A program made the position numbers and the translations under genes. Below, one piece after another: positions 7,402 to 58,083 of a stretch of 64,000 nucleotides of DNA. Position 1 is the stretch's first letter. Each line of letters opens with the position of its first letter. The notes beneath the pieces are model-generated. The model did not search any database. It saw only the letters and a program-made list of their open reading frames with translations, and had not been told where the DNA came from. Source of the DNA: Candidatus Levyibacteriota bacterium (GTDB taxonomy: Bacteria > Patescibacteriota > Microgenomatia > Levybacterales > UBA12049); NCBI GenBank assembly GCA_038205015.1, contig JBBRCK010000003.1:2527-66526 (forward strand), in the 5' to 3' direction.

Positions 7402-7421
7402 GATAAAAGTAATAAAGAATA

Positions 7422-7982: not shown

Positions 7983-8027
7983 ATAAAATTAGTATATAGT
8001 ATTATACATATCGTATCTAGTAAGAGA

Positions 8028-8600
8028 TTAGGCGTAGGGATCGTAATATTTTAGGTCCGGAAAATCTTCTAAAATTTGTGATTCATAAGGTACAGTTAAA
8101 ACAGTTTGCATGCTGGTGGGTTCAAGGACCGGTTCTCCATCAAGCCCGTTTCCTACGGGTTTTCCTCTAATAATATATAACTTCCTTGGTTCATATTCAT
8201 ATCTTCCGGCCATACTATATCTTAAGTTTAGCCTAAGGTTTGGATCTCTTTTATCAACACTAGACACGCTAATTCCAGTTTCTTCCAGGGGTTCTTTTTG
8301 TCCCATCCAATTTCCCCATACTGCTTTGCTAACTTTCCCCGGAGTCTTATCAAGTTCGATATCCGGGCTCCATCTGGCAAACAATGGTCCATCTTCCATG
8401 GCTTTTAATATGTTTGGAGTAACTGAAGCTAGCGCATGCTCAAATCTTGCTTGTTCATATTCGCTCCAATATGTTCCTGTGCCAAGGAGTCTCCATTCTT
8501 TTGAAAATTGACTAAAATCTGGCTCTGGGCTTGCTTGAGCTTCGCTTTTAGTATCTTCGGGCGCTATTGCGGTTGGTTGCGATTCTGTGTCTGGACCCAT
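8028..8600 (-). CDS. Hypothetical protein (190 aa), Pro/Glu-rich N-terminus, no recognised domain; composition slightly GC-richer than neighbours
   Basis: ORF only. Confidence 0.4.
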   Translation of the reverse strand: MGPDTESQPTAIAPEDTKSEAQASPEPDFSQFSKEWRLLGTGTYWSEYEQARFEHALASVTPNILKAMEDGPLFARWSPDIELDKTPGKVSKAVWGNWMGQKEPLEETGISVSSVDKRDPNLRLNLRYSMAGRYEYEPRKLYIIRGKPVGNGLDGEPVLEPTSMQTVLTVPYESQILEDFPDLKYYDPYA

Positions 8601-8642
8601 AAATTAAAAATGACAGATTTAAAATATTAAGTCAAATTACCA

Positions 8643-8677
8643 ATAAAAAACCCCAACGAATACGTTAGGGTTTTTTT
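8643..8677 (-). terminator. Rho-independent terminator immediately 3' of tmRNA (hairpin CCCTAACG-TATT-CGTTGGGG followed by T-run on minus strand); A-run on other side makes it potentially bidirectional
   Basis: Plus strand aaaaaaccccaacgaatacgttagggttttttt. Confidence 0.55.
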
Positions 8678-8678
8678 G

Positions 8679-9038
8679 TGGAGATGTCGAGCTATGAACT
8701 CGAGTCCAAGAAAACATTTTAAAAACGTCTACAAGCTTATTCTACTTTTAAGTGTCGTTCTACTCTTTTCCAATAGACGGGAATAAATAAAACCTAGATT
8801 ATAAATTCGATAAGGACCTAATCGGCTTCCTTATTAATTTCTCAACTGTATTTATGCTCATATAGTCCCATTGAGAAAAGACATTATGAACAGCTCAACC
8901 TATTTAAGCAAATGCGTAAAGAGGTTGTGCGCTGGAACGTGAAGTTCTAGCATTTAATTTTTGACTAAGTTAACGGCGTTTAGTCATTGCCGGCTTGCAT
9001 TTTTTAAAGTGCGAATCTTGTCGATGCAATGCATCCCC
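8679..9038 (-). ncRNA. ssrA: tmRNA (SsrA), about 360 nt, tag peptide ending ...AQPLYAFA-stop
   Basis: Minus strand 5' GGGGATGCATTGCATCGACAAGA (tmRNA-like 5' end). 3' end GGAC-TCGAG-TTCATAG-CTCGA-CATCTCCA (T-arm plus acceptor). Acceptor helix GGGGATG/CATCTCC with G3-U70 wobble (Ala identity). Internal frame ...GCA CAA CCT CTT TAC GCA TTT GCT TAA (stop at plus 8904-8906). Directly downstream of smpB. Confidence 0.8.
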
Positions 9039-9092
9039 AATAGTTGGAATTATATGTCTTTTAGCTTCAAAAGTCAAGTTTTTGAGGGTAAT

Positions 9093-9524
9093 TTAGGACA
9101 ATTCCTGTTCAATTCTTCTATTAAGATCTCGTTTTTTAATCGATTCTTTTTTTTCGTATTTTTTCTTACCTTTTCCAAGCGCAACCTCAAGCTTAATAAA
9201 GCCGTGTTTTAAGTATAAAGATACCGGTACCAAAGTTAAATTAGAGCCTTCAGTTTTTGATTTTAAAGAAATAATTTCCTGTTTATGTAAGAGAAGTTTT
9301 CTCGTTCTTCTATTGTCGAATCCTTCAATTTGTCCTGGTTGATAAGGGAAGATTTTAGCATTAACCAAATAAGCTTCACTTCCGACAATTCTAATAAAAG
9401 AACCGGTTAAATCTGCCTTGCCAAGTCTTACCGATTTTACTTCGTGGCCATAAAGATTAATTCCTGCCTCAAACTTGTCTGAGAGCTGGTAATTAAAAAA
9501 GGCTTTTTTATTGGTAATTTTCAT
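9093..9524 (-). CDS. smpB: SsrA-binding protein SmpB
   Basis: Conserved SmpB blocks: GHEVKSVRLGKADLTGSFIRI, NRRTRKLLLHKQEI, GSNLTLVPVSLYLKHGFIKLEVALGKGKKKYEKK. Confidence 0.9.
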   Translation of the reverse strand: MKITNKKAFFNYQLSDKFEAGINLYGHEVKSVRLGKADLTGSFIRIVGSEAYLVNAKIFPYQPGQIEGFDNRRTRKLLLHKQEIISLKSKTEGSNLTLVPVSLYLKHGFIKLEVALGKGKKKYEKKESIKKRDLNRRIEQELS

Positions 9525-9560: not shown

Positions 9561-11366
9561 TTATTTAAGGTTAATTTCGTATAATTTGCCCGAGGATAAC
9601 ACATACACTTTCTTATCTTTTTCAAAAACTTCAAAATCGCTGGCGTTTTTAATAAAAGAAGCTTGATATTCAGCCTTATAATTTCCGCTTTTATCCAATA
9701 CAACAATTCTTGAGTTACCGTTATCTAAAATATAAACATTGTCAAAGTCGATATTGGAATAAATTCTAGTTGGGTTTGAAAGGTTTTTACTTAAATTATT
9801 AAGAGTAAAATTGTCTTTTTTGCCCTTAGTAAATTTGATAATTGTTCCATTTGAAAAAAGCACATAGACCGAACTATCAATTGTCATTGCGCTGGCTTTG
9901 GAAAAATCGACAGAAGAGCTATCGGCTAAATAATTTGTTTTAGAAAAACCCGAGTCTGTTTGAACAAATTTTAATATTTGATTTTGTTTTTTATCTAAAA
10001 CGTAAACATTACCAAAATATAATGCTAGTCCGCCTGCGCTTTGCCAATCACTGTCATTTTTGATTAAAGTTTTTTGGTTGGAGCCGTCTTTTTTAAGAGT
10101 AAAAATATTATTGGCAGTTAATCCATAAATATTCTTATCATCCTCAAAATAATACAGAGCGCTATTTTTCGTTTCTGCCAAAAGTAGGGGGCTTAGCGAT
10201 AAATCGATTTGTTTTTGAGGTATTTTAGCAACTTGAGACGTGCTGTTTAAAGCCGTATTTACTTTAGCCAATAAATTTAAAACTTGTTTTTCCTGGGATG
10301 AATTTTTCGGGAAACTGCTTTTGCCATTTTCTAAAATTTCTTTAGCTTTGGTAAAGCTATCATTTGCTAAATTCTGATTTAAGCCAATCAAGCCTTGTCC
10401 TTCGTTATACTTTTTAGTAGCCGGAGGATAGATGCTTTCAAAAGCTGTTTTTATTCTAGTATCACCTTGTTTTTTTAGAGCAAAAAAGACACTTCCTACA
10501 AAAACTACAATAATAATTACAACAATTGTTAAAAGGACTTTTTTAGGATGGTTTAATCCCAAATTAGAAGTAAGTTTAGGGTGTGGCAATAAATTGGTAA
10601 AAGATTTTAATTTACTTATCAGGCCTACTTGTTGATTAATGGTTGATGAATAAAAAGGTTTTTTTTCTTCAACTTTTTCTTCTATTTCTTCTGTTTCTTC
10701 TGTTTTGTCATCTTCTATTGAAAAATGCAAATCCTTTTCATCTGCCGGTACTAATTCTTCAACAGGTTTTTTATAGTTAATAATAATCGAAGATGCGCCT
10801 GATTCATCTTTTTCATGTAAAAGGGGAGCGATATTTTCGGCCGCATCTTTAGGACTTAAGCCGTCAAGCATTTCAAAAAGAGTATCGGTTGAAATAACCT
10901 TGGAAAATTGCTTAGTTTGAAGTATTAAAACATCGCCGTCTTGTAAAAATCCGGAAGCAACTTTTATAGCTTTATTCTCCTGATCATTTGCTTCCAAAAG
11001 ATGTCCAAGTTTGCCTTCTCTTTTTAAGGATAACTTACCATCCCCTAAAATATAAACGTATAAAACATTGTCGATAAAAGCTCCGATCACAAAAGAACAG
11101 CTTATTTCTTGGGGGATTTTTTCGGAAGTTAGCAAAACTGCATTTTTGATTGATTCTAGATCTTTTGTTTCTAAGGTAAAAAATTCTTGTTCTAAGCTAT
11201 CAAGAATCTCTTTTCCCAAGACATTTAAGTAATCTTTTTCCTCAGATTCTTCTTGAGTTTCCAGAGAAAGCACTGCAAAGAGTTTGCCGGCATTATAGGC
11301 CTGAGCCCAACTGTAAACGTTTGGGTTGGCAACGATTTTAGCAAATGAAAGATTAGATTCAGTCAT
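9561..11366 (-). CDS. Membrane protein with N-terminal cytoplasmic degenerate PP2C-like domain, single TM helix and approx 300-aa extracytoplasmic domain
   Basis: PPM-like blocks FAVLSLETQ (in place of FAVxDGHGG), YVYILGDGKLSL (GDSR-like), DGDVLILQT (GD-LLLCSDGL-like); TM VLLTIVVIIIVVFVGSVFFAL; weak assignment. Confidence 0.45.
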   Translation of the reverse strand: MTESNLSFAKIVANPNVYSWAQAYNAGKLFAVLSLETQEESEEKDYLNVLGKEILDSLEQEFFTLETKDLESIKNAVLLTSEKIPQEISCSFVIGAFIDNVLYVYILGDGKLSLKREGKLGHLLEANDQENKAIKVASGFLQDGDVLILQTKQFSKVISTDTLFEMLDGLSPKDAAENIAPLLHEKDESGASSIIINYKKPVEELVPADEKDLHFSIEDDKTEETEEIEEKVEEKKPFYSSTINQQVGLISKLKSFTNLLPHPKLTSNLGLNHPKKVLLTIVVIIIVVFVGSVFFALKKQGDTRIKTAFESIYPPATKKYNEGQGLIGLNQNLANDSFTKAKEILENGKSSFPKNSSQEKQVLNLLAKVNTALNSTSQVAKIPQKQIDLSLSPLLLAETKNSALYYFEDDKNIYGLTANNIFTLKKDGSNQKTLIKNDSDWQSAGGLALYFGNVYVLDKKQNQILKFVQTDSGFSKTNYLADSSSVDFSKASAMTIDSSVYVLFSNGTIIKFTKGKKDNFTLNNLSKNLSNPTRIYSNIDFDNVYILDNGNSRIVVLDKSGNYKAEYQASFIKNASDFEVFEKDKKVYVLSSGKLYEINLK

Positions 11367-22666: not shown

Positions 22667-24097
22667 TTAGCGCTTAATATAATAGTCTACCTTGCTATCA
22701 GAATATTCGAGTTTCCATATACTGCTTGCCGACAATAGATACATATCAAGATTTGTGCCCGGCACAGCAATGGCCCAAGAAAAATTTTGTTTTTCAAAAG
22801 CCTGTGTCCAAACGTTACTATTATAAATGTCGACAAAATCTTTAAACGGATTAATTCCATTTTCTTCCCAAACAGTCATTCTTCCATCAATGAAGGTTTT
22901 TATTTGAGGAACGCGCCAAATAAGATAACTACCCATGCTGTAATTATTAAATCCCCGTCCCCGTGGTGGATTCTCATTTAAGAAATCGCTTAGTTTTTCG
23001 GAACAACGTAAATTTAAGCAATAAACATTCCAGTTAAATGTATTAAGGCTAACTGCTGGTAATCTGATCAGTAAAGCGTAACAAAGCAATGCAAAAGTAA
23101 TTGACAAAGCCAGTAAATTCAGAATTTTGTGCCATTTAACAGTCACCATGCCTTGAATATACTTGAAGAAAATAAGGGCGACGGGAAAAGAACACAAGAC
23201 ATAAATTAAAAGATATCTCCGAAAGCCTAAAGTTAGAAAAAAGAAAATCGTGTTGATAAGGACATGCGGTAAAAATTTTTTCCAATCCTTGATAAGTATA
23301 AAAGCGGATATTATCAACAGTACTGCGGAATAAATAAAAAAGATTATTTGTCCCGGGGAGCCGTTGGGAATCGGCCTCCATTCTGCTATGTGAGATTGCA
23401 TTTGTGAAGATATAGCGTTTTTAAAATCTTCTGTAAAAACCCTATAAGTAAAGGGGTTAATAAAACAGGCTAACACAGATAGTATAAAAATGCTTAATTC
23501 AGTTAACAACTCTTTTTGTTTTTTTACATCACGAAATCCTAAGATTATCCTCCATGCCAAAAATATAAACCAAATACTAAGCCCCAGAATGAAACCGCCA
23601 TGTAGGTTGGCCCATATCAGAAAAACAAAAGGGAGGTAAATAAACCGCTTTTTATTAATAAGAGAATATACAATGGCTAAGCCTAGGATAGTATCCAATT
23701 GCGCTCTCATTCCAAGCCAAGCGACACCAGAGAGTATGAGAAATGGGGGTAATAAGAACATTTTTAACCATGGTTTAACCTTGTAAGCTAAAGTAATGAA
23801 TATAAATGCCAGAGTAACGGTTGCTGCGCCCCAGATAGACAATCCGACAAAGCCAAATGTTTTAAAAAATGGGTAAAGTATGACTTCATAACCCCAGGAA
23901 GGATTAACCCAATAATAATTGGGTAAGGAGGAGGAGAAAATATTTCTAGTTAATATTTTTCCGGTTTGCCAAAAATATTGCCCATATCTTAAGTGCCATC
24001 CTAAATCCGGATCAGTTGGAGGCCAAAGCATGAAGGTAAAGACGACAACTATAATTAAAATTTCTAAAATTATAGGCAGAAGCAGACTTTTCTTCAT
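22667..24097 (-). CDS. Polytopic membrane protein (476 aa), possible GT-C-like glycosyltransferase/polymerase
   Basis: About 12 hydrophobic helices, TDPDLGWHLRYGQY first loop; architecture only. Confidence 0.4.
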   Translation of the reverse strand: MKKSLLLPIILEILIIVVVFTFMLWPPTDPDLGWHLRYGQYFWQTGKILTRNIFSSSLPNYYWVNPSWGYEVILYPFFKTFGFVGLSIWGAATVTLAFIFITLAYKVKPWLKMFLLPPFLILSGVAWLGMRAQLDTILGLAIVYSLINKKRFIYLPFVFLIWANLHGGFILGLSIWFIFLAWRIILGFRDVKKQKELLTELSIFILSVLACFINPFTYRVFTEDFKNAISSQMQSHIAEWRPIPNGSPGQIIFFIYSAVLLIISAFILIKDWKKFLPHVLINTIFFFLTLGFRRYLLIYVLCSFPVALIFFKYIQGMVTVKWHKILNLLALSITFALLCYALLIRLPAVSLNTFNWNVYCLNLRCSEKLSDFLNENPPRGRGFNNYSMGSYLIWRVPQIKTFIDGRMTVWEENGINPFKDFVDIYNSNVWTQAFEKQNFSWAIAVPGTNLDMYLLSASSIWKLEYSDSKVDYYIKR

Positions 24098-25503: not shown

Positions 25504-26055
25504 TTGTATAATAGCAACATGAATAAGCTTATACCCTTTTTTGTACTATTTTTTATATTTTCCTTAACCAGTTTTTCTTTTGCAAAAGATGCCGTTTCTA
25601 GCCCATCGGCAGAAATAGTTCAGTACGACCTTCCGTACCCTGGGATTTTACCGGATAATCCTTTATATTTTCTAAAAGCAGTTAGAGATAACCTGATTAG
25701 GTTTTTTATTACGGACTCTTTGAAAAAAGGGGAATATGATCTTTTAATGTCGGATAAACGATTAGCCAGTTCGCAAAAACTTTTAGACGAAGGTAAAGTA
25801 GATTTATCGATAACCACGCTTTCAAAGTCTGGCAACTATTTTTATAGTTCTATTGAAAATATTGTAAAGGCGAAAAAAGAAGGACAAAATGCCAATCCTT
25901 TATTAGACAAACTCTTAACGGCGTCAAAAAAACATCAAGAAATAATTTCTGAAATGACAAGAAAAGCAAGCGGAAAAAACAAACAAGCGGTCCTAGGATT
26001 ATTGGAAAGAGCAAGAGATTTTCAAATAAAGGTAGAACAAAATAAGCCTAGATAA
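25504..26055 (+). CDS. Hypothetical secreted protein (signal peptide, 183 aa)
   Basis: N-terminal hydrophobic signal, otherwise helical K/E-rich. Confidence 0.4.
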   Translation: MYNSNMNKLIPFFVLFFIFSLTSFSFAKDAVSSPSAEIVQYDLPYPGILPDNPLYFLKAVRDNLIRFFITDSLKKGEYDLLMSDKRLASSQKLLDEGKVDLSITTLSKSGNYFYSSIENIVKAKKEGQNANPLLDKLLTASKKHQEIISEMTRKASGKNKQAVLGLLERARDFQIKVEQNKPR

Positions 26056-26211
26056 GTGCTTTTTCTGCCCCTTAAGAATAAATTTTTTACCCGGAACTTT
26101 ATGTATAGAGAATATGTTTTTTGTTCCTTTTTTTAAACTTTACCAAAAGATAGGAAAACTGAAGCTGAAAAACATACTGACCCTCTTTGATACAGATATT
26201 AATAGTTGACG

Positions 26212-26256
26212 CCATAGTCCTAGTGTCATATTATTTTTTTGGCACTATATCTAGTG
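26212..26256 (+). promoter_or_regulatory. Tandem NrdR-box-like palindromes (CCATAGTCCTAGTG and CACTATATCTAGTG), centres 31 bp apart, upstream of nrdR-nrdJ
   Basis: Imperfect 14-bp palindromes resembling NrdR box (CACwAtATaTwGTG) at 26212-26225 and 26243-26256; spacing of three helical turns typical of NrdR operators. Confidence 0.45.
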
Positions 26257-26308
26257 ATTGAAAGTCAAAATTTAAGAGTTAAGGGTCAAAAATAGGAAAT
26301 TTTGATTT

Positions 26309-26773
26309 TTGCCTTTTAAATTTATGAAGTGTCCATATTGCGGAAGCAAAGAAACAGAAGTAGTAGAAACCAGAGACTCTGAAGACCTGGAGACAATAAG
26401 AAGAAGGCGAGAGTGTATAACGTGTAAGAAAAGGTTTACAACTTACGAACGAATAGAAAACATTAATTTAATAGTAATCAAAAAAGACGGAAAACGGGAG
26501 CAGTTTAACAGAGATAAATTAAAAGCCGGAATAATCAGATCTTGCGAAAAAACAAAAGTATCTCTTGAAGATATTGAAAAAATAGTAACGGAAATCGAAA
26601 GAGAATTAAGGGGAGAAGCGAGTGTTGAGGTTGAAAGTAAGAAAATCGGACAAATGGTTGCCAGTAGGCTTAAGGCACTAGATAAAGTCGCTTACATCAG
26701 ATTCTCGAGCGTTTTTAGAAGATTTGTAGATGTAGAGGATTTTGAAAAAGAAGTAAAAAGATTAATAAAATAA
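26309..26773 (+). CDS. nrdR: Transcriptional repressor NrdR (zinc ribbon + ATP-cone)
   Basis: MKCPYCGS...CITCKKRFTTYERIE zinc ribbon; ATP-cone IVIKKDGKREQFNRDKL. Confidence 0.9.
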   Translation: MPFKFMKCPYCGSKETEVVETRDSEDLETIRRRRECITCKKRFTTYERIENINLIVIKKDGKREQFNRDKLKAGIIRSCEKTKVSLEDIEKIVTEIERELRGEASVEVESKKIGQMVASRLKALDKVAYIRFSSVFRRFVDVEDFEKEVKRLIK

Positions 26774-26775
26774 TT

Positions 26776-29205
26776 ATGAAATTAGACGGAATGAGACAAA
26801 AAGTATTTTTAGACAGATATTCTTTAAGAGATACCAAGGGTAATCCTACAGAGAAAACCCCGGATGAGATGTGGAAGAGGGTTGCAAAGGCAATTTCCGG
26901 AGTTGAAAAACCAAAAGACCGCAAAAAATGGGAGAAAAAGTTTTACGACGTAATGGATGGCTTTAAATTTTTACCAGGAGGAAGAATTTTATCAGGTGCT
27001 GGAACAGGATATGACGTTACATACTTTAACTGCTTTGTAATCCCAAACCCACCAGACTCCCGCGAGGGGATAATGGAAAATTTAACCCAAATGATTGAGA
27101 TTATGGCAAGAGCAGGTGGAGTGGGAGTTAATTTATCTTCCCTTCGGCCAAGAGGGTCAAGAGTTAAAAAGGTTAATGGATTTTCTTCAGGACCTTTAAA
27201 TTGGGCGTCACTTTATTCAGTAGCGACAAAAGATATTGTTCAGCAGGGTGGTTCAAGGAGGGGAGCGTTAATGCTAATGCTTAATGATTGGCATCCGGAT
27301 ATAGAAGAATTCATAACCAAGAAGCAGGATTTAACTCAGCTTAACGGGGCTAACCTTTCGGTTTGTGTTTCCGATGCTTTTATGGAAGCTGTTAAGAAAA
27401 ATGCAGATTGGGATTTAGTCTTTGCAGACTTAGATGATAAAAAATATGACACAAAATGGACAGGAGATATGGATGTGTGGAAAAAATTAGGCGGAAAAAC
27501 AAAAGTTATAAAAACAGTGAAAGCAAAGGATCTCTGGGATTTAATTTGTAAGGCAGCATGGACTTCTGCCGAGCCAGGTCTTCACTTTTTGGATAGAAGT
27601 AATAAGAGAAGTAATACTTGGTATTTCGAAAGACTTTCAGCCACAAATCCTTGCGGAGAACAACCTTTATCTCCTTGGGCAGTTTGTAATTTAGGCGCAA
27701 TGAATTTAGCAGCCTACGTTGATAAAAAGGGTCAGTTTGACTATGACAATTTTGGAAAAGATGTAAAGGTTGCCATGCGATTTTTAGACAATGTAATTGA
27801 CGATACGTATTATTTTTATAAGGAAAATGAAAAAGTTGCCAAAGATATTAGAAGAACCGGACTTGGAATTTTGGGACTGGCAGACGCTTTAATCAAAATG
27901 AAAGTTAAATACGGTTCTGACGAATCCTTACCGGTTATTGAAAAAATATTTAAAACCTTAAGAGATAATGCGTATATTGCATCTTCTGACATGGCCGTTG
28001 AAAAAGGAATTTTTCCTAAATTTAACAAAGAAAAATATTTACAAGGTTTCCATTTAAAAAAACTTCCTGAAGAAATAAGACAAAAAATTGCAAAACAAGG
28101 AATAAGAAATGCAGTTTTATTAACAATTGCCCCAACAGGAACGACAGGTCTTCTTTCGGGAGCTTCATCGGGGATTGAGCCAGTTTATGAATTCCAGTTT
28201 ATAAGAAAGGATAGGCTTGGTGAACACATGATGTATCACCCACTCTATGAAGAGTTCAAAAAAGAAAATCCAAATGTAGAAAAACCGGATTATTTTGTCT
28301 CGGCAAATGATTTAACTCCAGAAGAGCACGTTAGAGTTCAAGCAATTGCTCAGGATTATATCGATTCATCAATTTCAAAAACCGTTAATGCACCCAAAAC
28401 ACATACGGTTGATGACGTAAAAAGACTTTATGAATTAGCCTACGACTCTGGTCTTAAGGGAATTACTTATATGAGGGATGGATCAAGACAAGGAGTTTTA
28501 GAAAGAGTTGAAGAGAAAAAAGAAGAAGTAAAAGAACTACCAAAACAACTAGCCAGCCTTCCGGTTATGCCAAGGCCGGTGATGGTAGAAGGGGTAACGT
28601 ATCAGTCAGATACTCCGGTTGGTAAAACCTTTATAACTATTAATCACAATGAAGGTAATGAGCCATTCGAAGTGTTTATAACGGTTGGAAAATCTGGATC
28701 AGACGTAACCGCAATGGCTGACGCATTAGGAAGAATGATTTCTCTTAATCTAAGACTTAACGGGGGACTTGCACCACGAGAAAGAGTTAGGCAAATTGTT
28801 GCGCAGCTGATTGGAATCGGCGGAGCGAGATCAATTGGTTTTGGTGCAAATAAAGTTTTGTCTCTTCCCGATGCCGTTGCTAAAGTACTTTCCAAGCATT
28901 TTGAGTTTAGGGTTAACGGGGTAGTAGAAGATAGGCCAAGAATTGTTAATGGAGTAGAAAATGGCCACACTAGCGGAAACGGACACGCGCAGGCTATGTC
29001 AGCAGCTCAAGAAAGTATTAAAAAAGATAAAGAAGAAATCGTTAAGCTTGAGCAATTAAGTTTGCAAACTCCATCGGGCTCTTTGTCTGTAACTGAAGGA
29101 ACGGCGACAGGACTTTATGATATCTGTCCGGACTGCGGCGGAGCAAGTTTGGCATATGAAGAAGGTTGTAAAAAATGTTATGCATGCGGATATTCCGAAT
29201 GCTAG
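26776..29205 (+). CDS. nrdJ: Ribonucleoside-diphosphate/triphosphate reductase, class II (adenosylcobalamin-dependent) NrdJ-like
   Basis: ATNPCGEQPL active-site block, C-terminal Cys cluster CPDCGG...CKKCYACGYSEC; no NrdB partner; B12 salvage genes adjacent. Confidence 0.8.
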   Translation: MKLDGMRQKVFLDRYSLRDTKGNPTEKTPDEMWKRVAKAISGVEKPKDRKKWEKKFYDVMDGFKFLPGGRILSGAGTGYDVTYFNCFVIPNPPDSREGIMENLTQMIEIMARAGGVGVNLSSLRPRGSRVKKVNGFSSGPLNWASLYSVATKDIVQQGGSRRGALMLMLNDWHPDIEEFITKKQDLTQLNGANLSVCVSDAFMEAVKKNADWDLVFADLDDKKYDTKWTGDMDVWKKLGGKTKVIKTVKAKDLWDLICKAAWTSAEPGLHFLDRSNKRSNTWYFERLSATNPCGEQPLSPWAVCNLGAMNLAAYVDKKGQFDYDNFGKDVKVAMRFLDNVIDDTYYFYKENEKVAKDIRRTGLGILGLADALIKMKVKYGSDESLPVIEKIFKTLRDNAYIASSDMAVEKGIFPKFNKEKYLQGFHLKKLPEEIRQKIAKQGIRNAVLLTIAPTGTTGLLSGASSGIEPVYEFQFIRKDRLGEHMMYHPLYEEFKKENPNVEKPDYFVSANDLTPEEHVRVQAIAQDYIDSSISKTVNAPKTHTVDDVKRLYELAYDSGLKGITYMRDGSRQGVLERVEEKKEEVKELPKQLASLPVMPRPVMVEGVTYQSDTPVGKTFITINHNEGNEPFEVFITVGKSGSDVTAMADALGRMISLNLRLNGGLAPRERVRQIVAQLIGIGGARSIGFGANKVLSLPDAVAKVLSKHFEFRVNGVVEDRPRIVNGVENGHTSGNGHAQAMSAAQESIKKDKEEIVKLEQLSLQTPSGSLSVTEGTATGLYDICPDCGGASLAYEEGCKKCYACGYSEC

Positions 29206-29214
29206 TTGATTAAA

Positions 29215-29346
29215 AGTTAAATATAGGTAATCTTGGTGTAAATCCAGGGCTGTGCCGCAACTGTTAAAGTCAGAAAACTATATTTAATTTAAATGCCCGA
29301 GCAGGACACTATCATATCCTTCTCGGAATAAGAGAAGGATTTTTTT
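29215..29346 (+). promoter_or_regulatory. Cobalamin (B12) riboswitch with intrinsic terminator expression platform, upstream of DUF4430-membrane-PduO operon
   Basis: AGGUAAUCUUGGUGUAAAUCC, GCUGUGCCGCAACUGU, AGUCAGAAAAC match Cbl riboswitch core/B12 box; terminator CCTTCTC-GGAATAA-GAGAAGG + T7 at 29318-29346. Confidence 0.6.
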
Positions 29347-29709
29347 ATGAAAAGCAAAATAATAATTCTTATCACCTTAGTAGTTTTAGTTTTAACAGTA
29401 ACTGGTGTAGTGATAACTAATGTTAAAAATAAACCAGTAAGTGGTCAATTAATAGTAGCTGCTAAAACAACAGATGCCTTTTCTTATAAGGGTGAGAATG
29501 GAAAAAACGCGCTAATAATCTTAAAAAAAATGGCGAAAGTTGAGCAGGGTTCAAGCGGTTTGGTTACATCAATCAATGGTAGATTAGCACTTAGTTTAAA
29601 AAGAGAGTTCTGGGCTTTTTATGTAAACGGAAAGATGGCAAATGTTGGTCCCGCCGAGTATAATACCAAAGATCAAGATTTAATTAAATGGCAAATAGAA
29701 AAATATTAA
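29347..29709 (+). CDS. DUF4430-like small exported/membrane-anchored protein (family recurrently associated with cobalamin uptake operons)
   Basis: N-terminal TM/signal, C-terminal FWAFYVNGKMANVGPAEY...DLIKW block. Confidence 0.45.
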   Translation: MKSKIIILITLVVLVLTVTGVVITNVKNKPVSGQLIVAAKTTDAFSYKGENGKNALIILKKMAKVEQGSSGLVTSINGRLALSLKREFWAFYVNGKMANVGPAEYNTKDQDLIKWQIEKY

Positions 29710-30230
29710 TGAAAAAAATAATAAGTCCAATCTCTATAATTTTATTCGCAGTAATTTTAAGATTACTACCGCATCCGCCAAATTTAGTTCCGATCGCTGC
29801 AATGGCGTTGTTTGGAGGTTATTATCTTAATAAGAAATTTGCGCTAGTAATTCCTTTGATTGCTATGTTTATTTCAGACATTTTTTTAGGTTTTCATGCA
29901 ACTATGCCGTATGTTTACGGGAGCTTTCTTTTAACAGGAATATTGGGCTTATGGCTAAAAAACCATAGACACGCGAGAAATATTGTTGGAGGGACATTAT
30001 TATCGTCAATTGCATTCTTCTTAATTACAAATTTTGGGGTTTGGGCACAAGGCTCGTATGCAAGAGATGTTAGTGGGCTTTTCCAAAGCTATATCATGGG
30101 AATACCTTTTCTTAGAAATACTCTGCTTGGTGATCTTGGTTATGTTGGTTTGTTTTTCGGTTCTTATGAACTAGCTAAGTTTTTGATATTAGAGCATGGT
30201 TTCAGTAGGGTATTAACGATTAAAAAATAA
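29709..30230 (+). CDS. Small polytopic membrane protein, candidate B12 transporter substrate-capture (ECF S-like) component; ATG 29709 overlapping upstream stop (TAATG) preferred over 29688
   Basis: 5-6 hydrophobic helices, ~174 aa, sits between riboswitch-controlled DUF4430 and PduO; function by context only. Confidence 0.35.
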   Translation: MKKIISPISIILFAVILRLLPHPPNLVPIAAMALFGGYYLNKKFALVIPLIAMFISDIFLGFHATMPYVYGSFLLTGILGLWLKNHRHARNIVGGTLLSSIAFFLITNFGVWAQGSYARDVSGLFQSYIMGIPFLRNTLLGDLGYVGLFFGSYELAKFLILEHGFSRVLTIKK

Positions 30231-30231
30231 C

Positions 30232-30777
30232 ATGCCAATTTATACACGATTTGGTGATAAAGGAAAGACAGCTCTTCATACCGGAAAAACAGTTTCTAAG
30301 GCGAGCACAAGGGTAGAAGCCTATGGAAATTTAGATGAATTAAATAGTTTTTTAGGAGTTGTTTTATTCGAGCTTAAAGATAAAAAAATAAAAGCAGAAA
30401 TTTTACAAATTCAAAATGATTTATTTGAAATTGGCGCAAACCTTGCGGGGCCGGGGGAAAAAGGGTATTCGGGATTTGGAGAAAAATTAAAAAAAAGAGT
30501 GCTGGAGTTTGAAAAGACAATCGATGTATTAACAAATAAGCTCCCTAAGCTTAAAAACTTTATTTTGCCAGGCGGAAAAACAGGCTCGCTTTTGCATTAT
30601 GCCAGAACTGTTTCCAGGCGCGCCGAAAGAAGGACTGTTGCATTAGCCGGAAAAGAAGAGGTTTTAGAAGAAGTGTTGATTTATTTAAATAGACTTTCGG
30701 ATCTTTTATTTACATTTGCAAGATATATAAATTATAAAGAAAAACAAAAAGAAACCATTTGGACTACAAAGCCTTAG
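30232..30777 (+). CDS. PduO-type ATP:cob(I)alamin adenosyltransferase
   Basis: MPIYTRFGDKGKTALHTG...EAYGNLDELNSFLGV typical PduO/MMAB N-terminus. Confidence 0.85.
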   Translation: MPIYTRFGDKGKTALHTGKTVSKASTRVEAYGNLDELNSFLGVVLFELKDKKIKAEILQIQNDLFEIGANLAGPGEKGYSGFGEKLKKRVLEFEKTIDVLTNKLPKLKNFILPGGKTGSLLHYARTVSRRAERRTVALAGKEEVLEEVLIYLNRLSDLLFTFARYINYKEKQKETIWTTKP

Positions 30778-30818
30778 CATTTATTGTTCTTTATTTAGCT
30801 AAATGTTATGATTAATTC

Positions 30819-33770
30819 ATGGACGACGCTGCTCAGAAACAAAATCCAAATCCGAATTTGAAACCCGATCAAGTTTTAGTAAATGGCCAACCGCAGGTAA
30901 ATAATCAACAACCCCCACTAGTTGGTACAGCCAACAAAGAAGCTGGAGTGAGTACTCCATATATTGAACGCTCTCAGCCGGAGATTAAAACTGACTTTTC
31001 TACTCAGGGATTTATTCAAAATACTCAAGCACCTGTTCCGCACGTTCCTGAAGTAGGCCTAGAAGCTAGCGCAGAATCAACACCTGTACAAACAGAGCCA
31101 ACCGGCAAGGTTGTTTTGCCGATGACAGAAGGCGAAGCAGACAAGACTTTAAATAAGAGCCAGTCGAAATTTAATTTACATGAAAATATAGAAGGTGAAT
31201 ATACAGAAGATTCATTACCGTTTTTTGCAACGTTAATAAAAAAAATTTTTAAAGAAATGCGCAAAAGACTTGTTCCCGGTCCCTCAATGTTAGCATTCTT
31301 GCCGCTTATTCCTATGGCTTATGCACAACAAACAGTTGACTTATGTCCAAGAGGAAACTTTCGCATATTATGCTTTCTTACTGCTCAGCGGGCTGTGACA
31401 ACAGTGTCAAGTTCAAATTCTTCAGGGGCAAATATTTTACTGGCAATTTTTTTAGTACTGGTAATTTTATCTGTAACAGTTTTATTAATTCTTGGAATTT
31501 TATACCTTTTATTCATTTGGTATAAAAACAGGGATAGAGAAAAACAATCTCTTGAATCAACGCTCTTACAGATTGCAGTTCCTAAGGATAATGAAATAAA
31601 AATCGATGCCGCAGAACAGCTTTTTGCAAGTTTTTCCGGAATACGAGCTCATGGAATGTTTGCTTTTTTAAAGAATCCTCCGCATATCTCCTTTGAAATA
31701 GTGGGAATGTCCGAGGATATAAAATTTTATATTTATACCCCAAATAAATATAGAGATATGGTAGAAAAACAAATTAATGCCTCATATCCGGATGCAGAGA
31801 TAAGGGTGGTTGAGGAAAAAGGAGCTAAAGAGGGATATATTATTGGTAATGAATACAATATTTTCAGTAAAGATGGAAAAGTTGCTTTTGCATCGTTAAA
31901 ACTGAAAGATTCAAATTATAAGCCTTTAAAAGTCTACAAAGACTTTGCAGTTGATCCGCTGGCTTCAATCACTTCGGTTTTAGCTAAAATGAGTCATGGA
32001 GAAGGTGCGGCAGTTCAGATTTTAATAACAGGTGCTGATTCCAAGTGGAGTAAGATGGGGAGAAAATTTATCTCGGGTGTCAAGAAAACAGAATCAAATC
32101 CCGAGACCGCTAAGTATTCGGCAGACCCTAAAGAGCTGGAGGCAGTCGAGGGTAAAGTATCCAAACCCGGCTTTCAAGCGGTAGTAAGGCTTGTGGTGTC
32201 TTCAAGTTCGCAAGAAGCAGCCACGGTGCACCTTGAAAATATTATTAATTCCTTCGGACAATTTGAAGGATATAACGCTTTTACTAAAAATAAACACTGG
32301 CTTAAAGGGAATTTTATAACAGATTTTGTCTATAGATTTTTCCCATCGGGCGGTAATCTTTCGATTCTAAATAGCGAAGAATTAGCGAGCATGTTCCATT
32401 TTCCAAATAAAAGTGTTACTACGCCTCATATTTATTGGATTAACGCAAAAAGAGCTCCCGCGCCGGCACAAATTCCGGATTCAGGACTATATCTTGGTAT
32501 GAGTACTTTTAGGGGAATTGCTAAACCTGTATATATGAGAGATGACGATAGAAGAAGACACACTTACATTATTGGAAAAACAGGTGTTGGAAAATCGGAA
32601 ATGTTAAAACAAATGATTCTCCAGGATGTTAATGAGGGAAAAGGACTTGCGGTAATTGATCCGCATGGAGATTTAATCGAAGATGTTATGAAAATGATTC
32701 CTCCGGAAAGAGCAGAGGATGTAATCTTATTCGATCCTTCGGATACTGAAAGACCGCTGGGATTAAATATGTTAGAGGCAAAAACTGAGCAGGAAAAACA
32801 CTATATTGTTTCTTCAATCGTAGGACTTATGTACAAGCTTTACGATCCAAACAAGACCGGCATCATTGGCCCTAGATTTGAGCATGCCATTAGAAATGCA
32901 ATGCTTACGGTAATGAGTGAACCTGGAAGCACTTTTATAGAGGTGGTAAGAGCCCTAACCGATGCAAATTTCGTCCAAGAGCTACTTCCAAAAGTGCAAG
33001 ATCCGATAGTCAGGCGTTACTGGACAGACCAGATTGCTCAAACTAATGATTTTCATAAGTCCGAAACTCTTGATTATATAGTTTCTAAATTCGGAAGATT
33101 TGTTACTAACAAAATGATTCGAAACATTATCGGACAAAGTGAATCTGCTTTTGATTTCAGAAAGATAATGGATGAGGGGAAGATTCTTTTAGTTAATTTA
33201 TCTAAAGGAAAAATCGGAGAAGAAAACGCAGCCTTTTTAGGCTTAGTTTTGGTTCCTAGAATTTTAATTGCCGCCATGAGCAGGCAAGATATTGCACAGG
33301 AAGATAGAAAAGACTTTTACCTGTACGTTGACGAATTCCAGAATTTTGCAACTCCTGATTTTGCCCAAATTCTATCCGAAGCCAGGAAGTTTAAATTAAA
33401 CTTAATCGTTGCCAATCAGTTTATCGGACAAATGGATGAAGATGTTAAAAACGCGATTTTTGGAAACGTTGGAACAATAATGTCATTTAGAGTTGGCGTA
33501 ACAGATGCAAATTATCTGATGCATGAATTCCAACCGGTTTTTACAGAGACAGATTTAATTAATGTTGATGTTTATAACGCATATGTAAAGACAATAGTAG
33601 GGAACGAGCCGGTTACGCCTTTTTCCATTGATACTTCAAAAGATATGACTAAGGAAAAGGGCTTAGAGAATCCAAGAGTGGCAGAACTTGTCAGGGAGCT
33701 TTCCAGGCTAAAATATGGAAAAGATGTGGCGAGCCTTGAGGTTAATATTGCGCAAAGAGCCAGGCTGTAA
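30819..33770 (+). CDS. Membrane-anchored P-loop ATPase of FtsK/HerA superfamily (VirD4/TraD/TraG-coupling-protein-like); Q/P/N-rich disordered N-terminus (~160 aa), 2-3 TM, C-terminal ATPase
   Basis: Walker A YIIGKTGVGKSEML, DPHGDL, Walker B LYVDEFQNF, NLIVANQF; low-complexity N-terminus NPNPNLKPDQVLVNGQPQVNNQQPPL. Confidence 0.6.
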   Translation: MDDAAQKQNPNPNLKPDQVLVNGQPQVNNQQPPLVGTANKEAGVSTPYIERSQPEIKTDFSTQGFIQNTQAPVPHVPEVGLEASAESTPVQTEPTGKVVLPMTEGEADKTLNKSQSKFNLHENIEGEYTEDSLPFFATLIKKIFKEMRKRLVPGPSMLAFLPLIPMAYAQQTVDLCPRGNFRILCFLTAQRAVTTVSSSNSSGANILLAIFLVLVILSVTVLLILGILYLLFIWYKNRDREKQSLESTLLQIAVPKDNEIKIDAAEQLFASFSGIRAHGMFAFLKNPPHISFEIVGMSEDIKFYIYTPNKYRDMVEKQINASYPDAEIRVVEEKGAKEGYIIGNEYNIFSKDGKVAFASLKLKDSNYKPLKVYKDFAVDPLASITSVLAKMSHGEGAAVQILITGADSKWSKMGRKFISGVKKTESNPETAKYSADPKELEAVEGKVSKPGFQAVVRLVVSSSSQEAATVHLENIINSFGQFEGYNAFTKNKHWLKGNFITDFVYRFFPSGGNLSILNSEELASMFHFPNKSVTTPHIYWINAKRAPAPAQIPDSGLYLGMSTFRGIAKPVYMRDDDRRRHTYIIGKTGVGKSEMLKQMILQDVNEGKGLAVIDPHGDLIEDVMKMIPPERAEDVILFDPSDTERPLGLNMLEAKTEQEKHYIVSSIVGLMYKLYDPNKTGIIGPRFEHAIRNAMLTVMSEPGSTFIEVVRALTDANFVQELLPKVQDPIVRRYWTDQIAQTNDFHKSETLDYIVSKFGRFVTNKMIRNIIGQSESAFDFRKIMDEGKILLVNLSKGKIGEENAAFLGLVLVPRILIAAMSRQDIAQEDRKDFYLYVDEFQNFATPDFAQILSEARKFKLNLIVANQFIGQMDEDVKNAIFGNVGTIMSFRVGVTDANYLMHEFQPVFTETDLINVDVYNAYVKTIVGNEPVTPFSIDTSKDMTKEKGLENPRVAELVRELSRLKYGKDVASLEVNIAQRARL

Positions 33771-34545: not shown

Positions 34546-34617
34546 GCGCCTGTAGTTCATCGGTAGAACAATTGTCTTATAAACAATAGGTGTTTGGTTC
34601 GACTCCAAGCAGGCGCA
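34546..34617 (+). tRNA. tRNA-Ile (anticodon UAU)
   Basis: Acceptor GCGCCTG/CAGGCGC, D GTTC..GAAC, anticodon stem ATTGT/ACAAT loop CTTATAA, T-arm TTTGG-TTCGACT-CCAAG, discriminator A. Confidence 0.75.
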
Positions 34618-34638: not shown

Positions 34639-35499
34639 TTAAAGTTCGGTTAAAACTGAAGAATCTTTGCCGCGTTCTGGCACATACTGGAGATATCTTT
34701 CGGTTGTTGAAAGTCTTTTATGCCCTAAAACCTTAGATAGGGAAACTAGTGACACCCCATGTTTTAAGTGATGAGCAACGAAAGTATGTCTTAAATCATT
34801 TACCTTGGCATCTTTAATTTCTGCTAATCTAAAATACCTTTCAACCGCGGTTCTAATGTTTCTAATTAAGAAAGGTTTTCCGGATTTAGTAATAAAAAGG
34901 TGGTCGTCAGTCACTTTTGGCCTTAAATCTGAATATCTAGCTAATGCTTCTTGAGCTCTTTTGTTTAATGGAACAATTCTGTCGGCATGTTTTTCAAAAG
35001 GTGAAATATGTAGCGTGTCTTTGGTTACGTCGGAAAGTCTAAGGTTAGCAAGCTCACCGATTCTAATACCGGTTTGCAAGAGTAATTCTATAACAGCAAA
35101 CATTCTGGCGTCGTTTCTTGCAGCATCGCGTAGCGCTCTGTATTCGGTCGGAGTAAGTATTCTAGGTGGAGCAAGCTGGTACTTAGGGTGTGAGACTAAA
35201 AGGGAAGGGTCGTCGGTAATATATTCGCTTACTTTTAAGAATCTATAAAAAGTTCTGGTGGAGTTAATTTTTCGAGAAATTGACTTTGGAGTATAGCCTT
35301 CTTTACCTAGTTTTGCCAAAAATGCTTCGATATCTTCTTTTGCAACTTCATGAACCTGATTTCTTTGAAGCTCTTCTAAAAAGGCTATTAATTGGTCAAT
35401 ATCTTTACCGTATGCAACCACAGTAGAAGCAGACTTTTTGTTGTCCTTTAAAAAGTTTTTAAATTCATTATGGGCATCTCTTAATTTGATTGGTTTCAT
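34639..35499 (-). CDS. Tyrosine recombinase XerC/XerD-like
   Basis: N-terminal SAM-like core-binding domain; C-terminal R...HxxR...Y: LRHTFVAHHLKHG...GHKRLSTTERYLQ. Confidence 0.85.
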   Translation of the reverse strand: MKPIKLRDAHNEFKNFLKDNKKSASTVVAYGKDIDQLIAFLEELQRNQVHEVAKEDIEAFLAKLGKEGYTPKSISRKINSTRTFYRFLKVSEYITDDPSLLVSHPKYQLAPPRILTPTEYRALRDAARNDARMFAVIELLLQTGIRIGELANLRLSDVTKDTLHISPFEKHADRIVPLNKRAQEALARYSDLRPKVTDDHLFITKSGKPFLIRNIRTAVERYFRLAEIKDAKVNDLRHTFVAHHLKHGVSLVSLSKVLGHKRLSTTERYLQYVPERGKDSSVLTEL

Positions 35500-35622: not shown

Positions 35623-35961
35623 ATGAAAAAGGTTCTTTATATATTCACGGTCATAGTTTTAAGTATTATTATTAGTAATTTGCTTCATTCAATTTATGAT
35701 TTATGGCACAAGCAAGACCTGATAACTACAGCCACAAAACAGCTTGACGCTGAAAAACTCAAAAATGCCAAGCTAAAAGGAGAGCTTTCTTATGTAAAAA
35801 CCCAGCAATTTGTTGATGAAACAGCCAGAAATAAGCTGTTTTTAATAAAACCGGGGGAGCAACAGGTTTTAATCTCAAAAGATTTATTAAAGCTAAATAC
35901 CGGGGATCAAAAAAAGAGTAATCTTTCAAACTGGCAAAAGTGGCTGAATCTTTTCTTCTAG
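35623..35961 (+). CDS. Septum formation initiator FtsB/DivIC-like
   Basis: Single N-terminal TM, coiled coil, C-terminal ETARNKLFLIKPGEQQVLI block typical of DivIC/FtsB. Confidence 0.6.
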   Translation: MKKVLYIFTVIVLSIIISNLLHSIYDLWHKQDLITTATKQLDAEKLKNAKLKGELSYVKTQQFVDETARNKLFLIKPGEQQVLISKDLLKLNTGDQKKSNLSNWQKWLNLFF

Positions 35962-36035
35962 TACCAGGGGTGAGATTCGAACTCACGACCGCAAGGATAT
36001 GAATCTTGTGCTCTAACCAACTGAGCTACCCTGGC
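35962..36035 (-). tRNA. tRNA with anticodon CAU (elongator Met or lysidine-type Ile2)
   Basis: Acceptor GCCAGGG/CCCTGGT (G1-U72), D GCTC..GAGC, anticodon loop TTCATAT, T-arm GTGAG-TTCGAAT-CTCAC. Confidence 0.8.
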
Positions 36036-36096
36036 TCGCAATTATTTTAACATTTACTTCAAATTGAAGCAAATTTGTGCTATAATAGTAAAACGC

Positions 36097-36385
36097 GCGG
36101 GGTAGTGTACAGTGCACGTGAGGCTTAATAAAATGGGCCGTTTTGATAGTAATATTAAAAATGAACTTGGCTATATCGGTGAACTCCTGATTAAATCAGG
36201 ACAATACCGAGGGAAGTCCTTAAAAAAGACCCCGTAGAGACTACACGCCGAGCTCCCCAATTTAATTGGGGATGATGATATAGTCCGACACTCTAAGTAA
36301 TTGGAGAAACAGTGCATAATCTCACAGGCTAGGCGCAACTCCTAGCCCCGCAACAAGTTAACCCACTTCGAAAGATGTGGGTTTT
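36097..36385 (+). ncRNA. Candidate structured ncRNA (~290 nt), identity unresolved (RNase P RNA-like GAGGGAAGUCC element but not confirmed)
   Basis: Extended -10 TGcTATAAT at 36078-36086. 5'/3' closing helix GCGGGG/CCCCGC. Several perfect hairpins: CCCCAAUU-UAAUUGGGG, GGCUAGG-CGCAACU-CCUAGCC, UCCUGAUU-AAA-UCAGGA. Intrinsic terminator at 36361-36386. No ORF of 60 aa or more. Confidence 0.35.
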
Positions 36386-57756: not shown

Positions 57757-58083
57757 ATGGCAGATATAAATTTTACAGATCAAAATTTCCAACAAGAAGT
57801 CTTGGAATCAAAATCGCCGGTTTTGGTTGATTTTTGGGCAGAGTGGTGTGCTCCTTGTCGAATTGTTTCTCCGATAGTTGATGAATTGGCAACAGAATAT
57901 GGAGAAAAATTAAAAGTAGGAAAGTTAAACGTTGATGAAAGCGGTAAGACAGCACAAAGCTATGGAGTAATGAGTATTCCAAGTCTTTTAGTCTTTAAAG
58001 ATGGAAAAGTTATTAAAACCATGATTGGAGCTCAAAGCAAAGATAATTTTAAAAGAGAAATAGACAGTGTTTTAGGCGCTTAA
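57757..58083 (+). CDS. trxA: Thioredoxin
   Basis: WAEWCAPCR active site. Confidence 0.9.
   Translation: MADINFTDQNFQQEVLESKSPVLVDFWAEWCAPCRIVSPIVDELATEYGEKLKVGKLNVDESGKTAQSYGVMSIPSLLVFKDGKVIKTMIGAQSKDNFKREIDSVLGA

Follow-up and report, generated by a model that had tools for sequence, protein, structure and literature searches.

The stretch of DNA considered here, hereafter the window, comprises 64,000 nucleotides of contig JBBRCK010000003.1 from Candidatus Levyibacteriota bacterium (GCA_038205015.1). Close homologues of its proteins bear names of the Microgenomates/Levybacteria type, in keeping with a source among bacteria of the candidate phyla radiation. The locus of interest is a run of genes on its forward strand: nrdR; nrdJ, encoding a class II, adenosylcobalamin (AdoCbl)-dependent ribonucleotide reductase (RNR); a class II cobalamin riboswitch; and three genes for a DUF4430 protein, a DUF6580 membrane protein and a PduO-type adenosyltransferase. 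The whole is probably a two-tier operon by which coenzyme B12 is supplied to the RNR. Positions given below are those of the window on the (+) strand unless otherwise marked, and numbers prefixed with L designate loci used for comparison.

The first gene, nrdR (26324-26773), encodes a repressor with a Zn-ribbon (PF22811) and an ATP-cone (PF03477), and its product scores 191.8 bits on TIGR00244 (cut-off 124.65). The open reading frame (ORF) called mechanically opens at TTG 26309, and because the family match begins at residue 6, with MKCPYCG, ATG 26324 is the likely start. Two nucleotides past the nrdR stop begins nrdJ (26776-29205), the product of which matches PF02867 (3e-124), PF00317 and PF12637, carries a TSCPD domain and a Cys-rich C-terminal tail, and reaches 580.8 bits on TIGR02504 (NrdJ_Z; cut-off 399.95). 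The NrdE_NrdA model is narrowly passed too (342.3 versus 341.05), as expected since the barrel is shared, and neither an NrdB/F-like gene nor a second RNR was found among the larger ORFs of the window, which were scanned against Pfam. The nrdJ gene of the window is uninterrupted. In several relatives (L017, L041, L046, L058) the nrdJ match comes in two in-line pieces separated by a gap of about 1.0-1.1 kb, some 1,060-1,075 nt (1170-2048 and 3123-4580 in L046), an arrangement consistent with an intein or other insertion. A thioredoxin-reductase-like flavoprotein (PF07992) encoded at 58094-59005 (+), preceded by a 108-aa ORF at 57757-58083 (+), may represent with that ORF the reductant system for NrdJ.

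Upstream of nrdR lies a sigma-70-like promoter at 26206-26234 (−35 TTGACG, 26206-26211; 17-nt spacer; −10 TATTAT, 26229-26234), the top-scoring site of its kind within 26000-31000, with 10 of 12 positions matched. Two NrdR-box-like palindromes, to which no strand is assigned, overlap it at a spacing of 31 bp. Box 1 (GCCATAGTCCTAGTGT, 26211-26226), located between −35 and −10, is degenerate; it agrees with the consensus at 9 of 16 positions, the right half alone being well conserved, while box 2 (GCACTATATCTAGTGA, 26242-26257), just 3' of the −10 hexamer, matches 13 of 16. One box with at most three mismatches does not by itself stand out from chance (2 were found in 64 kb and 0.98 expected); what supports the assignment is that there are two boxes, where they lie and that they are conserved. 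The frame TTGAC-box1-cATATtAT-box2, with a spacing of 31-32 bp, is repeated 5' of nrdR in about 25 related loci, with a mean score for the pair of 21.8 compared to 18.5 (standard deviation 1.2) in shuffles, about 2.7 standard deviations above. A sequence-only reading of this DNA had proposed such a tandem pair, 31 bp apart, ahead of nrdR and a B12-dependent RNR; the pair is present with its layout kept among relatives, and the TIGR00244 and TIGR02504 matches bear out the two genes.

The class II cobalamin riboswitch aptamer (29209-29288) opens four nucleotides past the nrdJ stop codon and is a full-length match (model positions 1-81) to Rfam RF01689, AdoCbl-II, at 59.7 bits (gathering score 36.5; E 4e-12 when the entire window is searched, 1.5e-14 locally). 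The sequence-only reading had placed a cobalamin riboswitch directly after nrdJ, which holds, and had suggested RF00174 for 29215-29346; the family is instead RF01689, and the interval that it gave spans the aptamer plus the expression platform, the aptamer itself occupying 29209-29288. When a covariance model built from five riboswitch examples was run over 80 related loci, 74 matches with an E value of 1 or less were returned. An alignment of 73 distinct homologues, which was fitted to the model and so favours the structure, shows pairing in 89% of cells and compensatory changes on both strands for 19 of the 22 pairs; its covariation score is 0.58, compared to 0.15 for shuffled and 0.05-0.14 for slid controls. 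The helices of the four-way junction (P1/P3, P4, P5 and P6) are strongly supported. In its J1/3 bulge and simple P6 loop, the architecture resembles that given for class IIa in PMC7367189. The L5 loop, GCCGC, is invariant in homologues and lacks one base relative to the consensus loop of Rfam. One further match of the same model at 1165-1252 of the window (19.2 bits, E 0.018) was taken as chance; it falls within a 920-aa ORF and is absent from the Rfam output.

The aptamer is followed by a linker bearing a conserved 11-nt switching motif, CCCGAGCAGGA (29296-29306). Of 62 class II riboswitch hits, 34 carry it as an unbroken run and nine others have it interrupted by inserted hairpins (43/62). 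In L008, L012, L017 and L063 the CAGGA(A) of this motif stands just 5' of the next ATG, at the position expected of a Shine-Dalgarno sequence. The motif has a partner strand, UCCUUCUCGG (UCCU-U-CUCGG, 29317-29326), with which it is predicted to form an anti-terminator/anti-sequestor helix at 29297-29326, pairing CCGAG 29297-29301 with CUCGG 29322-29326 and AGGA 29303-29306 with UCCU 29317-29320. This helix is worth −11.9 kcal/mol on a transcript truncated at 29334, and a compensatory change is seen in L023, where CCCGCG meets CGCGG. It competes with a terminator-like hairpin at 29316-29346 (stem 29316-29324 with 29332-29340, loop GGAAUAA, U7 run 29340-29346; −13 to −14.6 kcal/mol), the 3' strand of which is the Shine-Dalgarno sequence GAGAAGGA (29332-29339), 7 nt before AUG 29347. 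The two structures are mutually exclusive and of similar energies. The terminator platform that had been placed ahead of the three genes is thus found in the hairpin 29316-29340 and its U7 run, abutting ATG 29347. Aptamers that begin within a few nucleotides of the nrdJ stop also occur in L002, L013, L024 and L037. Such a start leaves no intergenic room for a promoter after nrdJ, and because the aptamer abuts the nrdJ stop both here and in these relatives, an attenuator inside the operon is the simplest reading.

How the platform would operate follows a familiar pattern, in that class II cobalamin riboswitches hide the ribosome-binding site through ligand-dependent docking of L5 with a regulatory hairpin (PMC5028336; PMC7367189). 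When cobalamin is scarce, CCCGAGCAGGA would pair with UCCUUCUCGG; the proposal is that this pairing would block the terminator and leave the Shine-Dalgarno sequence free, so that transcription and translation would run on into the three genes. With cobalamin bound, the aptamer would engage the regulatory domain via an L5 loop contact and the hairpin 29316-29340 with its U7 run would form, ending the transcript after nrdJ and burying the Shine-Dalgarno sequence of the first salvage gene, an OFF switch. Two candidate partners for L5 are available, GG 29304-29305 (of CAGGA) and GG 29325-29326 (in the terminator loop), each offering at most 2-3 Watson-Crick pairs, and on this model a pairing with either predicts an OFF switch. 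It is from these features that we infer the direction of the switch and co-transcription with nrdJ.

The first salvage gene (29347-29709) encodes a DUF4430 protein (PF14478, 1.5e-12; 48.2 bits, threshold 23.8), the equivalent of CbrS in the Lactobacillales clusters discussed below. The protein is composed of an N-terminal membrane-anchor helix, a disordered linker of low confidence and an SLBB β-grasp domain at residues ~41-120, for which the AlphaFold2 (AF2) model has a predicted local distance difference test score (pLDDT) above 95. Its N-terminus, MKSK-IIILITLVVLVLTVTGVVI, includes a hydrophobic stretch of about 19 residues, a segment present in 30 of 30 homologues, and by virtue of this anchor the modelled DUF4430 domain is extracytoplasmic. 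At Levybacteria-like loci that seem to have no DUF4430 gene, an anchored protein of 225-273 aa is found that contains a Pro/Thr linker and has DUF4430 as its C-terminal domain. A Foldseek search with the model retrieves the β-domain of human transcobalamin (5no0; rmsd 2.1 Å over 78 columns, 26% identity, probability 1.0), and the top seven hits are all either chains of the transcobalamin family (5no0, 3kq4, 4kki, 2pmv, 4zrp) or the two chains of 3u7z. The closest solved structures are accordingly the β-domains of transcobalamin, intrinsic factor and haptocorrin together with 3u7z, a bacterial DUF4430 protein, and the resemblance to transcobalamin-like B12-binding folds toward which the sequence-only reading had pointed is present in the model. 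Burroughs et al. (2007; PMC1796856) had predicted a role in B12 scavenging on the cell surface for bacterial SLBB members.

The second salvage gene (29709-30230) encodes a polytopic membrane protein of the DUF6580 family (PF20221, 3e-52), predicted here to be a B12 transporter. The longest ORF runs from 29688, homologue alignments open at about its residue 8, and the start is likely to be ATG 29709, at an overlap (TAATG) with the stop codon of the DUF4430 gene. PF20221 is the sole Pfam match of the protein at E up to 0.01; neither of the S-component families PF12822 and PF07155, both of which are matched by CbrT, was hit, nor was any NCBIfam model. The protein, for which the AF2 model has a pLDDT of 90, would have roughly six helices. 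Profile-profile alignment by hhalign with the N-terminal half of CbrT gives a probability of 78% and E 1.8e-5 over 112 columns, with the shared motifs PN-x-P and IS(D/N)I(F/Y)LGF. The best structural matches of the model are the S-components FolT and RibU, and the one PDB sequence retrieved by a DUF6580 profile is CbrT. DUF6580 thus appears similar to the S-components of energy-coupling factor (ECF) transporters, as a weak, profile-level relative of CbrT. Identity with BtuM was considered and rejected, given that the DUF6580 profile matched no BtuM chain at E up to 10 and that none appeared in the Foldseek list; furthermore, no Cys is found among the invariant or nearly invariant columns of the DUF6580 alignment. 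Invariant residues of DUF6580 include H29, N32, D64, W89, N115 and D149. The family is large, with 4,870 representatives at the 50% identity level (E up to 1e-3), and no mention of DUF6580 or PF20221 was found in the searchable literature.

The third salvage gene, pduO (30232-30777), starts one nucleotide past the DUF6580 stop and encodes a PduO-type ATP:cob(I)alamin adenosyltransferase (PF01923, 1.4e-54). Its score on TIGR00636 (195.3 bits, cut-off 108.45) makes the assignment unambiguous. Given these junctions, translational coupling of the three salvage genes is proposed. The set of an exported DUF4430-like protein, a polytopic membrane protein and a PduO enzyme is the one that had been read from the DNA alone, and PF14478, PF20221 and TIGR00636 now attach family names to each.

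The wider context of DUF6580 was sampled in 80 loci from species-representative genomes of the candidate phyla radiation (CPR), Ignavibacteriota and Bacteroidota. A cobalamin riboswitch lies upstream on the same strand in 62 of the 80, a strong link to B12; it belongs to class II in CPR and to class I (RF00174) in Ignavibacteriota and Bacteroidota. DUF6580 is usually accompanied by DUF4430, an α/α-toroid protein, a TonB-dependent receptor or PduO, and many Levybacteria-like genomes share the syntenic order DUF5667-nrdR-nrdJ-[riboswitch]-DUF4430-DUF6580-pduO-...-TraG-like. The conservation of the DUF4430 and membrane-protein genes with the riboswitch, on which the sequence-only reading had depended, is evident from the 80-locus comparison; its description of a B12 cluster grafted onto nrdR-nrdJ is misleading, both for this synteny and for the parallel with the Lactobacillales cluster. 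In two loci of Ignavibacteriota/Bacteroidota that were scanned, riboswitch, TonB-dependent receptor and DUF6580 follow in order, and other loci of these phyla have ORFs of similar size between riboswitch and DUF6580. Other CPR lineages (L017, L033, L051, L063, L081) show the order riboswitch-DUF4430-α/α-toroid-DUF6580. The toroid units (L017, 5524-7660; L033, 3006-5002; L051, 3113-4889; L063, 2985-4990; L081, 2094-3917) encode a prenyltransferase/squalene-cyclase-like protein, that of L051 being judged from its sequence alone, and DUF4430 with a separate toroid gene would amount to a transcobalamin whose two domains come from adjacent genes. In L033 a BtuF-like binding protein (PF01497) follows DUF6580.

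In many Levybacteria-like relatives pduO is followed immediately by a second cobalamin riboswitch of class II, and L013 carries a tandem pair before DUF6580. These second riboswitches (regions L016, 6157-7391; L055, 6104-7706; L035, 6073-7503; L046, 6018-7222; L015, 5802-7288; L013, 3177-4982) have a variant linker motif, UCCGAGCAGAA, and control a fast-evolving protein of 360-520 aa (for example at 6306-7391 of L016) with pairwise identities of about 20-43% among most members. No Pfam hit was obtained for this protein in seven members scanned and no meaningful NCBIfam hit in 15; its sole recognisable part, from a PDB search, is a C-terminal CxxC...CxxC zinc ribbon, and the window has no homologue of it. 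Downstream of pduO in L015, after the second riboswitch and a gene of this type, lies a CobS gene (PF02654; region 7289-9429), followed by an ORF that begins like a histidine phosphatase (CobC-like) and by CobT-like ORFs, CobS alone having been scanned. This region suggests that some relatives can attach the lower ligand or remodel corrinoids.

An integrated account of the locus can now be offered, in which the first tier is the single promoter overlapped by two NrdR boxes. This promoter would drive nrdR-nrdJ and, by what is known of the NrdR family, its transcription would therefore follow the nucleotide pool through NrdR. The second tier would be the class II cobalamin riboswitch acting as an attenuator inside the operon, after nrdJ. 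The membrane-tethered, transcobalamin-β-like DUF4430 domain would capture a corrinoid outside the cell, DUF6580 would move it across the membrane, and PduO would adenosylate it, thereby trapping the cofactor and yielding AdoCbl for NrdJ. Family memberships, folds, covariation in the RNA, its alternative helices and the conserved context of genes and riboswitch are matters of observation, from which we infer the identities of the ligands and transport itself. That B12 is scavenged and adenosylated for the RNR, with the DUF4430 and membrane-protein pair as uptake candidates, had been put forward before, and the families, the models and, most of all, the comparative context lend it support. Nothing in the window speaks against the further prediction of that reading, that the organism cannot make B12 and feeds a single visible RNR: no cob/cbi genes were found among the larger window ORFs scanned against Pfam, although 64 kb, from a contig of about 70 kb, says little about the genome.

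Several observations weigh against this account. For the transporter, the top Foldseek matches of DUF6580, the S-components FolT and RibU, are weak (TM 0.5-0.56, E at least 0.29), a profile of 32 homologues retrieved a single PDB sequence, 6FNP_A (CbrT), at E 0.38, and the CbrT alignment entered into hhalign was built mostly from truncated sequences. Neither an ECF module nor an ABC ATPase is present among the larger window ORFs scanned, and the approximately 800 kb surrounding the 80 DUF6580 genes hold two ABC ATPases, both unrelated, with no ECF module adjacent. For the regulation, about a quarter of DUF6580 loci have no detected riboswitch, among them some Shapirobacteria- or Roizmanbacteria-like loci (L006, L021, L058, L071, L076), which display the order nrdJ-pduO-DUF4430-DUF6580, and L016 and L046, which have none at the nrdJ-DUF4430 junction, though one follows pduO; and none was found in the Lactobacillales loci examined (L082, L085). 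In view of these variant arrangements, riboswitch gating of the uptake genes is common, not universal. For the switch itself, the minimum-free-energy (MFE) structure of the full-length RNA already forms the terminator, and regulation would therefore have to be kinetic, while L5, being invariant, offers no covariation by which to choose between its two candidate kissing partners.

Within this account, it is put forward tentatively that DUF6580 joins CbrT and BtuM as a third, independent family of B12 transporters of the S-component type, one that is free of an ECF module, fed by DUF4430 and driven by PduO trapping; some lineages may add the separate α/α-toroid protein to give a split bacterial transcobalamin. 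If this is true, DUF6580 would constitute a minimal B12 import route of CPR bacteria, and in many Ignavibacteriota and Bacteroidota it would be the missing inner-membrane step after the TonB-dependent receptor. A possibility that has to be taken seriously, while falling short of an even chance, is that DUF6580 is, in the manner of CbrT, just another ECF S-component of group II, dependent on an EcfA/A'/T module encoded elsewhere, in which case the route would not be minimal. The S-component-resembling fold and the profile similarity to CbrT would fit this, a close homologue (P0078) carries a precomputed PF12822 hit, and it is established that genes of group II S-components are normally unlinked to the ECF module (PMC5997447). 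The scarcity of ABC ATPases and the absence of ECF modules described above, in the scanned window ORFs and around the 80 DUF6580 genes, argue the other way, as does the position of DUF6580 after a TonB-dependent receptor in the Ignavibacteriota/Bacteroidota loci scanned, which is the setting of the module-independent BtuM (PMC6072759).

That the DUF4430-DUF6580 pair imports cobinamide or another incomplete corrinoid, a lower-ligand precursor or cobalt, instead of complete cobalamin, is unlikely. Transporters of cobalt and of precursors are also known under cobalamin riboswitches, CbrT carries cobinamide besides cobalamin (PMC5997447), and L015 has CobS and CobC-/CobT-like genes downstream of pduO. 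Against this stand the consumers that are visible in the window and in most relatives, PduO and NrdJ, both of which need a complete cobamide, and the scanned window ORFs, among which no cobS or cobT was found. The DUF4430 fold, moreover, matches the cobalamin-contacting domain of transcobalamin (PMC1796856), and in the Ignavibacteriota/Bacteroidota loci scanned the partner of DUF6580 is a riboswitch-controlled TonB-dependent receptor.

Still less probable is that the hairpin and U7 run form a constitutive nrdJ terminator, with the salvage genes served by their own promoter and the aptamer acting in translation only or as an ON switch: the unconstrained MFE fold of the full region, a promoter-like TTGGCA-16-AAAAAT at 29149-29176 inside the 3' end of nrdJ and an activating corrinoid riboswitch reported in PMC10327014 would favour it, but such promoter-like sites occur at chance level (15 found, 13.6 expected), the conserved competing helix is of similar stability and would form first during transcription, and under cobalamin riboswitches the ligand classically represses uptake genes (PMC5028336).

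Beyond pduO, a gene for a 983-aa protein (30819-33770) opens 41 nt downstream with no terminator between. It has a VirD4/TraG/TrwB-type coupling-protein ATPase domain behind a long N-terminal extension, and many relatives keep it in synteny with the nrdJ-pduO block, so that it does not obviously belong to a mobile element; a tRNA (34546-34617) and an integrase gene (34639-35499, (−) strand) lie nearby. A group I intron (RF00028, 90 bits) lies at 36116-36307 (+), with flanks at about 36093-36350 reading GCGGGGTAG...GTGAGGCTT and AATCTCAC...CCCCGCA that resemble the halves of a tRNA split in the anticodon loop; ARAGORN made no call for an intron-split tRNA, finding just a tRNA-Met on the opposite strand at 35961-36035. 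A tmRNA gene (RF00023, 108.6 bits) is located at 8676-9038 on the (−) strand. For large ORFs of 411-920 aa at 11-2773, 6166-7401, 9561-11366, 22667-24097 and 51415-52740, Pfam gave no match with E values up to 1e-5 or 1e-6. Large ORFs of this kind are typical of CPR genomes.

The main value of the locus lies in a functional prediction for a large, uncharacterised membrane-protein family. A large fraction of the prokaryotes that depend on B12 have no identified inner-membrane transporter for it (PMC6072759). The prediction for DUF6580 is based on its association with riboswitches of two classes in three phyla, on its occupation of the CbrT position in an nrdJ-cbrS-X-pduO order, and on its TonB-dependent receptor neighbour. 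In CPR bacteria, the proposed operon would tie the synthesis of DNA precursors to a scavenged cofactor, a concrete dependency on neighbouring organisms. It would also combine two signals in one transcription unit, NrdR acting at the promoter and an internal riboswitch deciding between a stop after nrdJ and continuation into the salvage genes.

The individual elements of the operon each have known counterparts. NrdR-box-regulated nrd operons reportedly carry tandem 16-bp palindromes about three helical turns apart, as Rodionov and Gelfand are said to have described in 2005. The present operon shares with these its two boxes, 31 bp apart and overlapping the −35 and −10 elements and the start site, and includes nrdR itself; unlike in the usual pairs, box 1 is degenerate (9/16), and both sites are predicted ones. 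The aptamer finds its closest parallel in the env8 hydroxocobalamin riboswitch of class IIa (Johnson 2012, as cited in PMC5028336 and PMC7367189). The two share a compact aptamer of about 80 nt built on a four-way junction, in which J1/3 is bulged and P6 is a simple hairpin, and both present a regulatory hairpin bearing the ribosome-binding site 3' of a single-stranded linker. In contrast to env8, the hairpin of the present riboswitch runs into a U7 tract, which makes the platform a terminator-like, dual one, and competes with the conserved CCCGAGCAGGA strand; the riboswitch is situated inside an operon, directly after a coding gene, and its L5 loop is GCCGC.

The DUF4430 domain has the same β-grasp with a hairpin insert as the β-domains of transcobalamin, intrinsic factor and haptocorrin. 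Unlike transcobalamin, the protein of the window is a stand-alone β-domain on a membrane anchor with no α/α-toroid partner. For the membrane protein, the solitary B12 transporter of S-component type that Thiobacillus denitrificans encodes beside btuR, BtuM (Rempel et al. 2018; PMC6072759), is instructive. As with BtuM, DUF6580 is a small protein, with a predicted S-component-like fold, is devoid of an adjacent ECF module and is encoded beside a cobalamin adenosyltransferase, a neighbour that by analogy suggests metabolic trapping in both cases. BtuM is furthermore associated with BtuB in Gram-negative hosts, much as DUF6580 accompanies a TonB-dependent receptor in the Ignavibacteriota/Bacteroidota loci scanned. 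The two differ in that no sequence similarity of DUF6580 to BtuM was detected in the profile search (E up to 10), in that DUF6580 has no counterpart of the cobalt-ligating cysteine of BtuM, and in that the adenosyltransferase here is of the PduO type, not BtuR/CobA.

The nearest relative of the whole arrangement is the nrdJ-cbrS-cbrT-pduO cluster of Lactobacillus delbrueckii (Santos et al. 2018; PMC5997447), a cbrS/cbrT cluster predicted originally by Rodionov in 2009, as cited in PMC5997447, and ECF-CbrT has been demonstrated experimentally to transport both cobalamin and cobinamide (PMC5997447; PDB 6FNP). In the Lactobacillales CbrT loci L082-L086, one or more DUF4430 genes lie between nrdJ and cbrT, with PduO after, which confirms at the sequence level that cbrS encodes a DUF4430 protein. 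The two clusters have a class II RNR, a DUF4430 protein, a small membrane protein that is an S-component (CbrT) or is predicted to resemble one (DUF6580), and PduO in the same order. They are distinguished by the membrane protein, which belongs to PF20221 here and to PF12822/PF07155 in CbrT; by the RNR, which is of the TIGR02504 type here, beside nrdR and NrdR boxes, and has RNR_Alpha and RNR-II insertion domains in Lactobacillales; and by the class II riboswitch between nrdJ and the salvage genes, of which no counterpart was found in L082 or L085. Judged by gene order and family, the layout is accordingly not a new one, and represents the known Lactobacillales design with DUF6580 in the place of CbrT.

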